Shown piece after piece: positions 3,106 to 9,249 of a stretch of DNA of 16,103 nucleotides (positions within the stretch are counted from its first letter, which is position 1; each line of letters begins with the position of its first letter). A program made the position numbers and the translations under genes. The notes beneath the pieces are model-generated. The model saw only the letters and a program-made list of their open reading frames with translations, was not told the DNA's origin and searched no databases. The stretch comes from a virus. The stretch is taken from the UHGV virus genome UHGV-0276752. The stretch is one strand, 5' to 3'.

Positions 3106-3136
3106 AGGCCTGCTGGTAATCGCAGGCCTTTTTATT
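3106..3136 (+). terminator. Rho-independent terminator (tR2-like) between the helicase gene and ninB
   Basis: AGGCCTGC (3106-3113), 8-nt loop, GCAGGCCT (3122-3129), then TTTTTATTT. Confidence 0.7.
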
Positions 3137-3153: not shown

Positions 3154-3594
3154 ATGAAAAAACTAACCTTTGAAATTCGATCTCCAGCACATCAGCAAAA
3201 CGCTATTCACGCAGTACAGCAAATCCTTCCAGACCCAACCAAACCAATCGTAGTAACCATTCAGGAACGCAACCGCAGCTTAGACCAAAATCGGAAGCTT
3301 TGGGCTTGCCTTGGTGACGTTTCGCGTCAGGTTGAATGGCATGGTCGCTGGCTGGATGCAGAAAGCTGGAAGTGTGTGTTTACCGCAGCATTAAAGCAGC
3401 AGGACGTTGTTCCTAACCTTGCCGGGAATGGCTTTGTGGTAATAGGCCAGTCAACCAGCAGGATGCGTGTAAGCGAATTTGCGGAGCTATTAGAGCTTAT
3501 ACAGGCATTCGGTACAGAACGTGGCGTTAAGTGGTCAGACGAAGCGCAACTGGCTCTCGAATGGAAAGCGCGATGGGGAGACCGGGCAGCATGA
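3154..3594 (+). CDS. ninB: NinB (Orf-family recombination mediator)
   Basis: ATG 3154 with GGGAGAGGGAAG SD. Protein [28 protein letters not shown]... is essentially identical to lambda NinB as I recall it. The TTG at 3136 in the track is unlikely to be the start. Confidence 0.9.
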
Positions 3595-3764: not shown

Positions 3765-3913
3765 TCTGTGAAAACTGCAAATACCTTCCAACGAAACGCT
3801 CCAGAAACAAACGCAAGCCAATCCCAAAAGAATCTGACGTAAAAACCTTCAACTACACGGCTCGCCTGTGGGATATCCGGTGGCTAAGAGAACGTGCGAG
3901 GAAAACAAGGTGA
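3731..3913 (+). CDS. ninE: NinE
   Basis: GTG start 3731 preceded by AAGGAGGA (3718-3725). Product [60 protein letters not shown] matches lambda/P22 NinE from memory. Confidence 0.75.
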
Positions 3914-4080
3914 TTGACCCAAATCGAAGTTACGAACAAGGAAGTGTCGAGCGAGCTTTAACGTGCGCTAACTGCGGTCAGAAGCTGCATGTGCTGGAAG
4001 TTCACGTGTGCTCCGATTGCTGCGCAGAACTGATGAGCGATCCGAATAGCTCAATGTACGAGGAAGAAGACGATGAGTGA
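3910..4080 (+). CDS. ninF: NinF, small Cys-rich protein
   Basis: GTG 3910 overlaps the ninE stop (GTGA). Product [56 protein letters not shown] resembles lambda NinF from memory. Alternative upstream ATG at 3868. Confidence 0.7.
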
Positions 4081-4798
4081 GTTAATAAATGGCAACGCCA
4101 TCAAAATGACAAGCATTGAAATCGCTGAGTTGGTAGAAAGCCGCCATAGCAATGTAAAAGTATCCATAGATAGATTGGTGAAGCGTGGCGTTATCAAGCC
4201 TCCTGCATTGCAGCACACTAACATAATCAATGATTTAGGTGTTATTACCGGGAAGCGTGATTTCTACGTCTTCGAAGGCGAAAAAGGTAAGCGCGATAGC
4301 ATTATTGTCGTTGCCCAGTTGTCGCCGGAATTCACCGCTCGTCTTGTTGACCGCTGGCGAGAGCTTGAAGAAGCTGCGGTTAATATCCCCAAAACGCTAC
4401 CGGAAGCGTTGCGCCTTGCTGCTGATCTTGCTGAGCAGAAAATGCAACTGGAAAACCAGCTCGCAATTGCCGCACCTAAAGTTGAGTTTGCCGATCGAGT
4501 TGGCGAGGCCAGTGGAATTTTGATTGGAAACTTTGCAAAGGTTGTTGGTATTGGTCCAAACAAACTGTTTGCGTGGATGCGCTATCACAAAATCCTTATT
4601 GCTTCAGGTGCCCGGCGCAATGTGCCAATGCAGGAATATATGGAGCGCGGCTATTTCACAGTGAAAGAAACAGCGGTCAACACAAATCACGGAATACAGA
4701 TATCGTTCACTACAAAAATCACCGGACGTGGCCAACAGTGGCTGACCAGAAAGCTGCTCGATAACGGAATGCTGAAAGTAACCGGGGAGGCTGCTTAA
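4073..4798 (+). CDS. Antirepressor-like protein: Rha-like N-terminal domain plus KilA-C/ANT C-terminal domain
   Basis: 241 aa. N-terminal region with TSIEIAELVESRHSNV and DSIIVVAQLSPEFTARLVDRWRELE (Rha/Bro-N-like). C-terminal LPEALRLAADLAEQKMQLENQLAIAAPKVEFADRV is typical of the KilA-C/ANT antirepressor domain. Start overlaps the ninF stop; stop overlaps the next start (TAATG). Confidence 0.7.
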   Translation: MSELINGNAIKMTSIEIAELVESRHSNVKVSIDRLVKRGVIKPPALQHTNIINDLGVITGKRDFYVFEGEKGKRDSIIVVAQLSPEFTARLVDRWRELEEAAVNIPKTLPEALRLAADLAEQKMQLENQLAIAAPKVEFADRVGEASGILIGNFAKVVGIGPNKLFAWMRYHKILIASGARRNVPMQEYMERGYFTVKETAVNTNHGIQISFTTKITGRGQQWLTRKLLDNGMLKVTGEAA

Positions 4799-5088
4799 TG
4801 GCTAACCTACGCAAAGAAGCACGCGGCAGAGAATGCCAGGTACGTATTTACGGCGTATGCAATGGTAATCCTGAAACTACAGTTCTGGCACATTACCGGA
4901 TGGCTGGAATTTGCGGAACGGGGATGAAGCCTGAAGACCTGATCGGCGCATGGGCTTGTAGCGCGTGTCACGATGAAATCGACCGACGCACCCATAACCT
5001 CGACAACAAAGACGCCAGACTTTACCACCTCGAAGGCGTGATCAGGACGCAGGCGATACTGCTGAAGGAGGGGAAGATTAAGTCATGA
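4798..5088 (+). CDS. ybcO: YbcO-like protein (DUF1364), predicted Zn-binding nuclease of lambdoid nin regions
   Basis: MANLRKEARGRECQVRIYGVCNGNPETTVLAHYR...ACSACHDEIDRR closely resembles E. coli DLP12 YbcO as I recall it. Conserved Cys/His pattern. Confidence 0.75.
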   Translation: MANLRKEARGRECQVRIYGVCNGNPETTVLAHYRMAGICGTGMKPEDLIGAWACSACHDEIDRRTHNLDNKDARLYHLEGVIRTQAILLKEGKIKS

Positions 5089-5609
5089 ACGGTAAAAGAT
5101 ATCCAACACAAAAAGAAATCAATGAATTGTATGAATATAATAGCGAAACAGGTTTGTTTATATACAAGAGAAGAGAAAGTGTAAGAGAGTGCTGGAATTC
5201 AACATATGCCGGTAAGATTGCTGGTTCTATAGATGAAAAAGGATACGTTCGTATATCTGTAAATAAAAAAGTTTGTCGAGCTCATAGAATCGCATGGATA
5301 TCCTTTTATGGAAGTGAACCTGATGGGGAAATTGACCACATAAATGGAGTTAAAAGCGATAACAGAATATGCAATTTGCGCGTTGTAGATGATAAACAGA
5401 ACTCAAGGAACAGAAAAAAGCCTATTAATAATCGCTCTGGAGTAATGGGGGTTGCCTACTATAAGAAGAATAAAAAGTGGGGCGCATATATAAACAGTGA
5501 TAATAAAAAGATATTTCTTGGATTATACGATGACATATCTCTAGCCGTTAATGCCAGAAAATTGGCGGAATCACGATTGGGGTATCACCATAATCATGGG
5601 AGAGGATAA
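5085..5609 (+). CDS. HNH homing-type endonuclease with an AP2-like DNA-binding domain
   Basis: 174 aa. HNH core EIDHINGVKSDNRICNLRVV...QNSRNR. C-terminal GVMGVAYYKKNKKWGAYIN...GLYDDISLAVNARKLAESRLGY resembles the AP2/IENR-type domain of phage homing endonucleases. Markedly AT-rich (about 35% GC by eye, versus about 50% in flanks). Confidence 0.8.
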   Translation: MNGKRYPTQKEINELYEYNSETGLFIYKRRESVRECWNSTYAGKIAGSIDEKGYVRISVNKKVCRAHRIAWISFYGSEPDGEIDHINGVKSDNRICNLRVVDDKQNSRNRKKPINNRSGVMGVAYYKKNKKWGAYINSDNKKIFLGLYDDISLAVNARKLAESRLGYHHNHGRG

Positions 5610-5971
5610 ATGGCAGAATACAGATTCACACTTCCGTACCCACCGTCGCTGAACACCTACTGGCGAAGACGGGGAAGCCAATACTACATCAGCGATAAAG
5701 GCCAGAAATACCGAAAAGACGTCCAGCAAATCATCCGCCAACTTAAGTTAGACATTTTCACCAAATCACGACTCCGCATCAAAGTCATCGCAGACGTTCC
5801 AGACTCCCGCCGCCGCGACCTCGACAACATCCTGAAAGGTTTACTCGACTCCCTTATCCACGCCGGATTTGCGGAAGACGACGAGCAATTCGATGACATT
5901 CGCGTAATTCGTGGTGGAAAGTACCAGGCGGAAGGCTTGGAATAAAAATCACCGAACTGGAGAACGCATGA
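5610..5971 (+). pseudogene. rusA: RusA Holliday-junction resolvase with an apparent 1-nt deletion frameshift near 5911-5920
   Basis: Frame 0 (5610-5945) gives a RusA-like N-terminus (TLPYPPSLNTYW, PDSRRRDLDN) but ends ...IRVIRGGKYQAEGLE. A second frame (5912-5971) encodes WWKVPGGRLGIKITELENA, matching the canonical RusA C-terminus (KGGRLELTITEMGNE, from memory). Its stop at 5969-5971 overlaps the ninH ATG (ATGA). Repaired length would be 120 aa, equal to RusA. Confidence 0.6.
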
Positions 5972-6156
5972 ACGCCACAATTCAAACGATACCAGAGCTT
6001 CTTATCCAGACACGAGGCAATCAGACCGAAGTGGCGAGGATGCTTTCCTGCGCAAGAGGAACAGTGCTCAAGTACAACCGAGACAGCAAAGGTGAGCGTC
6101 ACGTAATAGTTAACGGCGTCCTGATGGTCAAACAGGGCAAGAGGGGAAGACGATGA
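5968..6156 (+). CDS. ninH: NinH
   Basis: ATG 5968. MNATIQTIPELLIQTRGNQTEVARMLSCARGTVLKYNRDSKGERHVIVNGVLMV resembles lambda NinH (..KTIPDMLVEAYGNQTEVARRL.CSRGTV.KY.., from memory). HTH-like. Confidence 0.75.
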   Translation: MNATIQTIPELLIQTRGNQTEVARMLSCARGTVLKYNRDSKGERHVIVNGVLMVKQGKRGRR

Positions 6157-6641
6157 GCATAAGAGAACTAAACCTCACCAAAGAACAGCAGGAGTGGCTG
6201 AATGGCTGGCTTGAACTGTGGGGCGCATGGGTTTATTCAGGTCGTCTTGAAAAGCGCATGAGCAGCGTAATAGCGAAGTTCATGGAGAGCGTAGAGCCGG
6301 GAAGAGTTATGACAAGGCCAATGTGCAATGATGATGATGGAATGTTGATTTCTCAGGTCGTCGATTCCGTCATGTACATTGACAAGAAAGCCTTTGGCAT
6401 CCTCCTCAGCTACTACGCCCATGGATCTTCCAAGCACGCCATTGCATCTTACTATCATCGTGTCGCAAGACCTCGCAAGATGTTATGCCGGGGCGGCGGG
6501 CGTATTCAAAAACCATCGCTCGCAACCTGTCGCCGGGAAGTTGACGAAATCCTCAATGCTTCGTTGTTTATGATTTACCCGGTTCTGGATAGTGCGTTTA
6601 AAAACCGGAAACGTGTAGAGAAAATTAAACATGTAGCATAG
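6153..6641 (+). CDS. Q: Late-gene antiterminator Q (P22 gene 23 / phage 82-933W Q type)
   Basis: 162 aa. ELWGAWVYSG motif and overall pattern resemble Q proteins of 82/933W/P22 type. Located between ninH and the late promoter/lysis genes. ATGA overlap with ninH. Confidence 0.8.
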   Translation: MSIRELNLTKEQQEWLNGWLELWGAWVYSGRLEKRMSSVIAKFMESVEPGRVMTRPMCNDDDGMLISQVVDSVMYIDKKAFGILLSYYAHGSSKHAIASYYHRVARPRKMLCRGGGRIQKPSLATCRREVDEILNASLFMIYPVLDSAFKNRKRVEKIKHVA

Positions 6642-8730: not shown

Positions 8731-9249
8731 ATGAATCATCAATTGGCTAATCTCGATTTTCGGGACATGGTGGTTGTTTCTGGTGATCGCGTGATCACAA
8801 CCTCCCGCAAGGTAGCAGCTTACTTCGACAAGCAGCATCACCACATCATTCAGAAAATCGAAAAGCTAGACTGTTCGGATGAATTTCTAACCAGCAACTT
8901 TTCGCGGGTTACCTATGAACACAAGGGTAATCAGTATGTTGAATATGAAATTTCCAAAGACGGTGCGATGTACATCATCATGTCGTTTACCGGCAAAAAA
9001 GCTGCCGCCATCAAAGAGGCGTTTATCAAAGCATTTAATTGGATGCGTGACAGGCTGATGGAGATGGCTCACTCATACCAAAGAGAGCACAACGAGTTAA
9101 TGCTGGAGTTCATGAAGGAAAAGGATGTTGCCAGTATGTCAGGACGCTTGCTGAACCGCTGGGGCAGGATCAAAAAACCGCAACTCATAGCAAGAATCGA
9201 AAGGCTTGAGCAGCAGGCGCAAATATCGATCCCCGGACTGCCAAAGTGA
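8731..9249 (+). CDS. rha: Phage regulatory protein Rha (P22 orf201 equivalent)
   Basis: 172 aa with the Rha-family signature (VITTSRKVAAYFDKQHHHIIQKIEKL ... MYIIMSFTGKKAAAIKEAFIKAFNWM). Sits between the lysis genes and terminase as in P22. Confidence 0.85.
   Translation: MNHQLANLDFRDMVVVSGDRVITTSRKVAAYFDKQHHHIIQKIEKLDCSDEFLTSNFSRVTYEHKGNQYVEYEISKDGAMYIIMSFTGKKAAAIKEAFIKAFNWMRDRLMEMAHSYQREHNELMLEFMKEKDVASMSGRLLNRWGRIKKPQLIARIERLEQQAQISIPGLPK

Follow-up and report, generated by a model that had tools for sequence, protein, structure and literature searches.

The 16,103-nt sequence UHGV-0276752 (the window, by which we mean this whole stretch at its full length) is a portion of a mosaic P22-like Escherichia coli prophage. 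Its nin region, which is the subject of this analysis, holds a normal module of the HK97/HK022 type, ninF-roi-ybcO-rusA-ninH-Q. In the interpretation that we favour, with a probability of about 0.7, this module has been entered by a free-standing homing endonuclease gene (HEG) that targets the start of rusA in HEG-less phages. The gene in question, located at positions 5085-5609 on the + strand, is of the HNH-AP2 type, has precise boundaries and a foreign origin, is rare, and has spread recently; a recoded patch of ~35 nt always accompanies it immediately 3'. It is the sole true insertion among the three genes found between ninF and rusA, and the products of the other two, Roi and YbcO, are bystanders.

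An initial annotation had described these three genes as one accessory insertion. The open reading frames (ORFs) that it delimited are borne out (4073-4798, 241 aa; 4798-5088, 96 aa; 5085-5609, 174 aa; all on the + strand), and so are the overlaps of all three starts with the preceding stops, which can be read directly in the sequence. Between roi (ATG at 4073) and ninF (stop at 4080) the overlap is 8 nt; ybcO, with its ATG at 4798, shares 1 nt with the roi TAA; and the ATG of the HNH gene at 5085 overlaps the ybcO TGA by 4 nt (ATGA). At the other end, the rusA ATG at 5610 abuts the HNH stop at 5609 without overlap. The comparison with P22 was also right, as ninF-ninG-ninY-ninH-ninZ-23 occupies the same position in that phage, and the nin region is indeed mosaic. 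Domain searches returned all the expected families: ANT/KilAC (PF03374, 9.6e-32) in the first protein, YbcO/DUF1364 (PF07102, 2.3e-44) in the second and HNH_3 (PF13392, 1.1e-16; 60.6 bits against a cut-off of 24.8) in the third, and the three-gene block was found not to be universal. Its delimitation as an insertion did not hold, however. DNA comparison identifies roi, ybcO and rusA, in this usual order, as the standard module of HK97, HK022 and HK620, so that a cargo cassette of three genes was rejected and only the HNH gene is inserted.

An HNH-AP2 gene at the junction of ybcO and rusA

When the HEG region is aligned to HK97, where the site is empty, homology ends cleanly after ATGAACG (5085-5091) and returns in rusA. 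Fixed anchors on the two sides lie 39 nt apart when the site is empty (73 loci) and 564 nt apart when it is filled (22 loci), corresponding to a net gain of exactly 525 bp, and the boundaries of the insertion are identical across all these sites. The inserted gene reuses the original context of the rusA start (ATGAACG, with the ATGA overlap on ybcO). Its GC content is 35.6%, as opposed to 52.6% in ybcO and 50.6% in rusA. The assignment of 5085-5609 as a free-standing HNH-AP2 HEG is based, among other evidence, on the HNH_3 match, the empty-site alignment and the GC profile.

Distribution of the HEG was assessed in bacterial and viral collections. It was found in 33 of 5,426 complete E. coli genomes, as a single chromosomal copy in each, while the flanking pair ybcO-rusA is present in ~1,091 of them, which puts the gene at ~3% of such sites. 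Nineteen IMG/VR contigs carry it as well. No DNA match to the HEG was obtained in 50,697 phage records, and it is absent from all reference phages having the roi-ybcO-rusA module. A scan of GTDB species-representative genomes for close relatives outside E. coli-type prophages disclosed only one distant relative (41%), and a literature search found no published description of this HNH element. As an example of HEG decay, in E. coli 1008S19 (L003:3248-4438) an IS1A element has truncated the gene, leaving its 3' 279 nt annotated as "HNH endonuclease"; the same event also deleted upstream nin genes.

The second feature linked to the insertion is a recoded start of rusA (5610-5649, + strand), the Holliday-junction resolvase gene that extends over 5610-5945 on the + strand (Pfam RusA 9.5e-16; 96% identity to HK97 gp67 over 104 aa). 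In filled loci rusA begins with ATG GCA GAA TAC AGA TTC ACA CTT CCG TAC CCA (MAEYRFTLPYP), and in empty loci with ATG AAC GAA TAT CAG TTT GTG CTT CCA TAC CCG (MNEYQFVLPYP). The two versions differ by 13 changes in 33 nt, with three codons altered at all three positions, whereas the next 90+ nt are near-identical. To delimit this association, 21 non-redundant filled (HEG+) loci were compared site by site with 74 empty (HEG-less) ones. Fixed HEG-associated alleles are restricted to positions 5613-5642 (13 substitutions) and to one further site at 5649, and none occurs in ybcO. On the left, alleles are already at their population frequency at position 5083, only two bases away from the HNH start, and on the other side linkage is gone by 5654. 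The recoded alleles are invariant in the 21 HEG+ loci, while their frequency in the 74 HEG-less loci is 0-7%. E. coli genomes were searched with a 60-mer, and IMG/VR both with an exact 24-mer and with a codon pattern of full degeneracy; the recoded start was recovered only together with the HEG (33/33 genomes and 19/19 contigs, respectively). In HEG-less phages, the ribosome-binding site of rusA is located within the 3' end of ybcO. In the window, the 3' end of the HEG contains GGGAGAGG (5596-5603, + strand), six bases before the new rusA ATG, a Shine-Dalgarno-like sequence which probably serves rusA.

The window copy of rusA carries in addition a deletion of 1 nt at ~5917 (T absent in GGTG[T]GAAAG) when compared with HK97 and two HEG+ prophages. 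This window-specific change shifts the frame of the last 16 codons, giving 111 aa instead of 120, and separates rusA from ninH by 22 nt, where the two genes otherwise overlap in ATGA. Either a genuine inactivating mutation or an error of sequencing could account for it.

Comparison of the same filled and empty loci provides information about the history of the gene. Mean pairwise identity of the HEG in filled loci is 99.3% (15 segregating sites in 518 nt), and it drops to 96.0% in the flanking ybcO and to 96.9% in the remainder of rusA. These loci are distributed over four types of module just upstream of ybcO (roi in 13 of them) and five types of Q region. Combined, these make up at least 19 backgrounds, in proportions that resemble those of the empty loci, and for about half of the filled loci the nearest ybcO+rusA relative is an empty locus, the flanks being polyphyletic. 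Low diversity of the gene in relation to its flanks, together with the number of its backgrounds, leads to the conclusion that the HEG is younger than the haplotypes around it and has moved among them. The HNH ORF is intact in all 21 filled loci, with a ratio of nonsynonymous to synonymous polymorphism (pN/pS) of ~0.2. Ordinary recombination could also be the vehicle of this spread.

According to its predicted structure, the product of the HEG is an I-HmuI-like nuclease with a C-terminal AP2 DNA-binding domain. I-HmuI of phage SPO1 (1U3E; His-Me finger group 2, HNH_3) is the only PDB sequence match, and residue alignment with it delimits the HNH (beta-beta-alpha-metal) catalytic core to residues 65-109 (5277-5411, + strand). 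Residues D84, H85, N97 and N106 are aligned with D74, H75, N87 and N96 of I-HmuI. No variation was seen among 70 homologues at H67, D84, H85, D92, N93, N97 or N109, and conservation of N106 is at least 90%. The AlphaFold (AF2) model, built on an alignment of homologues, has a predicted local distance difference test score (pLDDT) of 94.4, and its top Foldseek match in PDB is again I-HmuI (E 3.2e-4, probability 1.00). Differences in domain arrangement keep the global TM-score at only 0.42. The next matches are the AP2 domains of TEM1, ERF1 and WRI1 (root-mean-square deviation 1.2-2.7 Å), corresponding to a predicted module of a three-stranded sheet and a helix (E123-126, E131-138, E141-148, H151-165) at residues ~118-165 (5436-5579, + strand). 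An AP2 domain had been anticipated in the initial annotation; besides the predicted structure, it is seen in homologues, many of which have PF00847 precomputed.

Similarity with I-HmuI includes, in addition to the D-H...N...N residues, the size of 174 aa and the modular design of a nuclease joined to a DNA-binding domain. The two enzymes differ in that they share only ~23% identity, and in that I-HmuI is intron-encoded and ends in a helix-turn-helix domain, while the HNH protein is free-standing and carries AP2. Association of HNH_3 with AP2 is a recognised architecture of homing endonucleases (PMC5714182, group 2; PMC10448857). As far as these two sources relate the work of Magnani et al. 2004, HNH-AP2 homing endonucleases occur in phages, cyanobacteria and protists, and include the "IPA-HNH" genes of ICP1. 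The HEG has in common with this family an N-terminal HNH and a C-terminal AP2 domain and a free-standing position between conserved phage genes, and family members in virulent phages are multi-copy. It differs in its residence in temperate lambdoid/P22-like E. coli prophages, at a single conserved ybcO/rusA site, and in its distance from the nearest relatives, which share with it no more than 51% identity in IMG/VR (over most of their length) and 56% in the protein database (over 72% of the query). No intermediates between the HEG and these relatives were found in either collection. Homologues (35-51% identity overall; at most 48% among isolated phages) come mainly from virulent phages, where a single genome often has several of them, and homing endonuclease is a common annotation for these genes. 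One HEG+ viral contig (L025, identical to contig L184) harbours a second HNH gene of the same family (L025:3720-4271; 183 aa, 44% identical), placed between the lysis and terminase genes.

Proposed homing and alternative explanations

No promoter or terminator on the + strand was found inside the block, and with this organization the HEG would be expected to be part of the early-right (nin) transcript when the phage grows lytically or is induced, at which time its targets are available. Its product would recognise the ybcO/rusA junction of HEG-less genomes, most likely at rusA codons 2-11, and would nick or cut this junction in co-replicating lambdoid genomes. As the population pattern suggests, recombinational repair from a HEG carrier may then copy not only the gene but also the ~35-40 nt of recoded rusA next to it, and the 13 substitutions of the patch may shield the carrier from self-cleavage. 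Insertion of the HEG can be regarded as a putatively "polite" one, in which the gene takes the rusA start codon and the ATGA coupling to ybcO, and would supply a new ribosome-binding site for rusA.

Behaviour of this kind is known from the free-standing Seg and Mob genes of phage T4, for which the term "intronless homing" is used. These genes reside between conserved genes, the target adjoins the insertion point, co-conversion of flanks is short, and the resulting polymorphism protects the carrier. Seg proteins belong to the GIY-YIG enzymes and Mob proteins to the HNH enzymes, the latter binding DNA through zinc fingers and not through AP2, and homing was shown experimentally for both. The HEG would behave in the same manner, differing from them in its HNH-AP2 type and in that its homing is predicted from sequence patterns.

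Nuclease genes have been described as located at boundaries of genetic exchange between phages (PMC10448857), and the HEG fits this observation. In six HEG-less loci (L094, L096, L097, L102, L103 and L114, at ~position 3283 in each) the same ybcO is joined to a divergent class of rusA (MKTYRIKLPWPPS...). The join is positioned exactly at the ATGA overlap, which is the insertion point of the HEG, so that a boundary of mosaic recombination coincides with it. Location of this junction is consistent with the described pattern, and the HEG, if our interpretation is true, would add a case to it.

Several points weigh against homing as the explanation. That the empty allele is cut at a specific site, and that the HEG is inherited in a super-Mendelian fashion, are both predictions drawn from sequence comparison. 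No donor rusA allele with the recoded start and without the HEG was found in IMG/VR or in the E. coli genomes, and the Pfam AP2 profile is not significant on the HNH protein's own sequence. Much of the same pattern could be produced by one ancient insertion followed by ordinary exchange of flanks in freely recombining nin regions. Linkage of the patch would be perfect under either model, because the patch is too divergent for recombination to occur within it. Occupancy of only ~3% of available sites is low for an efficient drive. Finally, I-HmuI is a nickase, and a double-strand break is therefore not assured.

The first alternative to be considered regards the HNH gene as passive cargo, which came in through a single event of illegitimate recombination, is at present inactive or does not home, and is shuffled only by ordinary homologous recombination among lambdoid phages. 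Flanking module types occur in the same proportions in HEG+ and HEG-less loci, as free recombination would give; frequency of the gene is low (33 of ~1,091 sites), and one copy has already been destroyed by IS1. A simple insertion nevertheless leaves unexplained the 13 substitutions in the adjacent 33 nt of rusA. Moreover, the diversity of the HEG is about one-fifth of that in the sequences directly flanking it, its ORF and catalytic residues are conserved, and its pN/pS points in the same direction, so that we hold passive cargo to be unlikely. Location of the gene between two nucleic-acid-processing genes, to which it is translationally coupled, would in turn agree with a domesticated nuclease, acting as a third partner of YbcO and RusA in recombination or junction processing, or in some other role beneficial to the phage and not selfish. 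Domestication of HNH proteins has a precedent in the terminase-associated HNH of HK97 (PMC10448857). We find such a role very improbable, since ~97% of ybcO-rusA pairs and all module-bearing reference phages do without the HEG; in addition, its GC content and nearest relatives point to a foreign origin in virulent phages, and AP2 is a sequence-specific DNA-binding domain typical of homing enzymes.

In the initial annotation, the block was put forward as a candidate locus of superinfection, anti-repressor or anti-defence cargo, with the Roi-like "antirepressor" as its most interesting part. The ANT/KilAC domain of Roi is indeed common to P1 Ant1/KilA and to P22-type antirepressor families, the nin region is a known mosaic hotspot, and a homing nuclease that cuts HEG-less rusA would incidentally harm competing lambdoid phages. 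The emphasis on Roi was misplaced, however, as it is an ordinary, conserved core nin gene of HK97/HK022-type phages, with a product implicated in lytic growth. PADLOC models match none of Roi, YbcO and RusA; the HNH protein meets only the generic "HEase homing endonuclease" profile (1.2e-5), and a search of NCBIfam adds nothing toward a defence system, which was for this reason rejected. The block has no promoter of its own, and its expression in a lysogen is therefore not expected. Anti-defence cargo is, in sum, an improbable explanation of this locus.

Returning to homing, a more far-reaching version can be proposed, in which the HEG actively homes on temperate lambdoid phages and cuts the rusA start of rival prophages upon co-induction or superinfection. 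Such an element would be both a gene drive and a weapon in competition between prophages, and would help to create the sharp mosaic boundary at ybcO/rusA. We consider this version doubtful. The predicted target is sharply delimited, to ~30 bp at the rusA start, so that HK97 or HK022 could serve as recipients in direct tests of cleavage and homing. Roi and YbcO were already known, and the HNH gene is a new addition to the HNH-AP2/I-HmuI-type family, while the concept itself is not new. The value of the analysis is mainly corrective, in that it does away with the picture of a defence or anti-defence island and recognises the "antirepressor" as the known Roi; beyond this, the HNH gene represents a tidy natural case of a free-standing homing endonuclease in temperate coliphages.

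Roi, YbcO and neighbouring genes

The gene at 4073-4798 (+ strand) is roi, which codes for the DNA-binding protein Roi (ANT as above; PHROG 63 at 1.8e-91). It had been considered to be only generically annotated as an antirepressor, a view that has to be abandoned in light of its identity of 99% to HK97 Roi and 98% to HK022 Roi (236/241 residues). Roi of the window shares with both the length of 241 aa and the position between ninF and gp66/ybcO, and differs from them in essentially nothing, that is, in 2-5 substitutions. Its weak Rha-like N-terminal half is followed by the C-terminal ANT/KilAC domain, which is found in P22 Ant-type antirepressors as well. The predicted combination of Rha and KilA-C is thus confirmed for the ANT/KilAC part, while the match to Phage_pRha remained below the threshold (25.1 bits against a cut-off of 29.9). 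HK022 Roi reportedly binds a site inside its own gene, and this binding is said to be modulated by IHF. It is a DNA-binding protein implicated in lytic growth of the phage, in the study of Clerget & Boccard 1996 as far as it is cited in PMC3430580.

Homologues of roi were found in 985 of the 5,426 complete E. coli genomes. Megablast against the 50,697 phage records revealed that the segment comprising roi and ybcO (4073-5091) is collinear, at 88-98% DNA identity, with HK97, HK022, mEpX1/2, HK542, HK75, HK140, HK620, HK633, CUS-3 and others. In these phages roi continues into gp66/hkbD (ybcO), and the latter directly into rusA, all of which characterizes roi as a standard nin-region gene in HK97/HK022-type phages.

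The gene ybcO, also named HK97 gp66 or hkbD, is located at 4798-5088 (+ strand) and codes for a zinc-binding putative nuclease of the His-Me-finger type. Its protein matches DLP12 YbcO (PDB 3G27) over the full length (E 2.1e-40), and residues C13, C21, H32, C54, C57 and H58, invariant in 61 diverse homologues, are all kept. The YbcO/DUF1364 family consists of His-Me-finger nucleases, usually found next to RusA, Q and an antirepressor (PMC5714182). In all 101 collected loci ybcO is followed by rusA, directly in 79 HEG-less ones and across the HNH insert in 22 HEG+ ones. Normally, ybcO is translationally coupled to rusA. The window therefore agrees with DLP12 YbcO, HK97 gp66 and HK620 HkbD (His-Me finger group 7, DUF1364/DUF968) in the full-length match, the invariant Cys/His residues and the adjacency of rusA, and differs in that the HEG breaks the normal ATGA coupling to rusA in this prophage.

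Some variability of ybcO was observed at codons 66-67 (4993-4998 in the window; equivalent positions in L005-L022). Multi-nucleotide variants change Thr-His-Asn into T-R-I, T-M-I or T-Y-N in 7 of 21 HEG+ loci and in 1 of 74 HEG-less ones (Fisher p = 7e-5), with the window being wild type. Inactivation of YbcO in HEG+ loci was considered and rejected, and the changes are probably not inactivating, because the variable His66 is not a conserved position in the DUF1364 family.

Genes of the window are arranged in the order cII, replication protein, DnaB-type helicase, nin region, Q, holin/endolysin/Rz, Rha-family gene, terminase and P22-type portal, and no tRNA genes were detected among them. In the nin region, the three-gene block is flanked by ninB, ninD, ninE and ninF upstream, and by rusA, ninH and Q downstream. 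The ninF gene (3910-4080, + strand; Pfam NinF 9.9e-14, PHROG 672) likely starts at the GTG at 3910, which forms a GTGA overlap with ninE and gives 171 nt, the length of HK97 gp64, so that the mechanically called ORF from 3868 is probably too long. Similarly, ninH (5968-6156, + strand) is matched by Pfam Phage_NinH (4.2e-24) over residues 20-79 of a longer ORF (5911-6156), and its true start is likely the ATG at 5968, which yields a protein of 62 aa, the size of HK97 gp68. A gene for a Q-type late antiterminator (6153-6641, + strand; Phage_antitermQ 8e-25, PHROG 943 at 7.1e-90) closes the nin region.

The Rha-family gene codes for a protein of 172 aa (8731-9249) with Phage_pRha (1e-23) and ORF11CD3 domains, and is placed after the lysis cassette, where P22 has rha. 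As a candidate for "Rha" it surpasses Roi, whose pRha match is below the threshold. Just upstream of ninB, in the position that lambda tR2 takes where the nin region begins, a strong hairpin resembling an intrinsic terminator was observed at 3106-3129, composed of 8 pairs (6 of them GC) and followed by a run of T.

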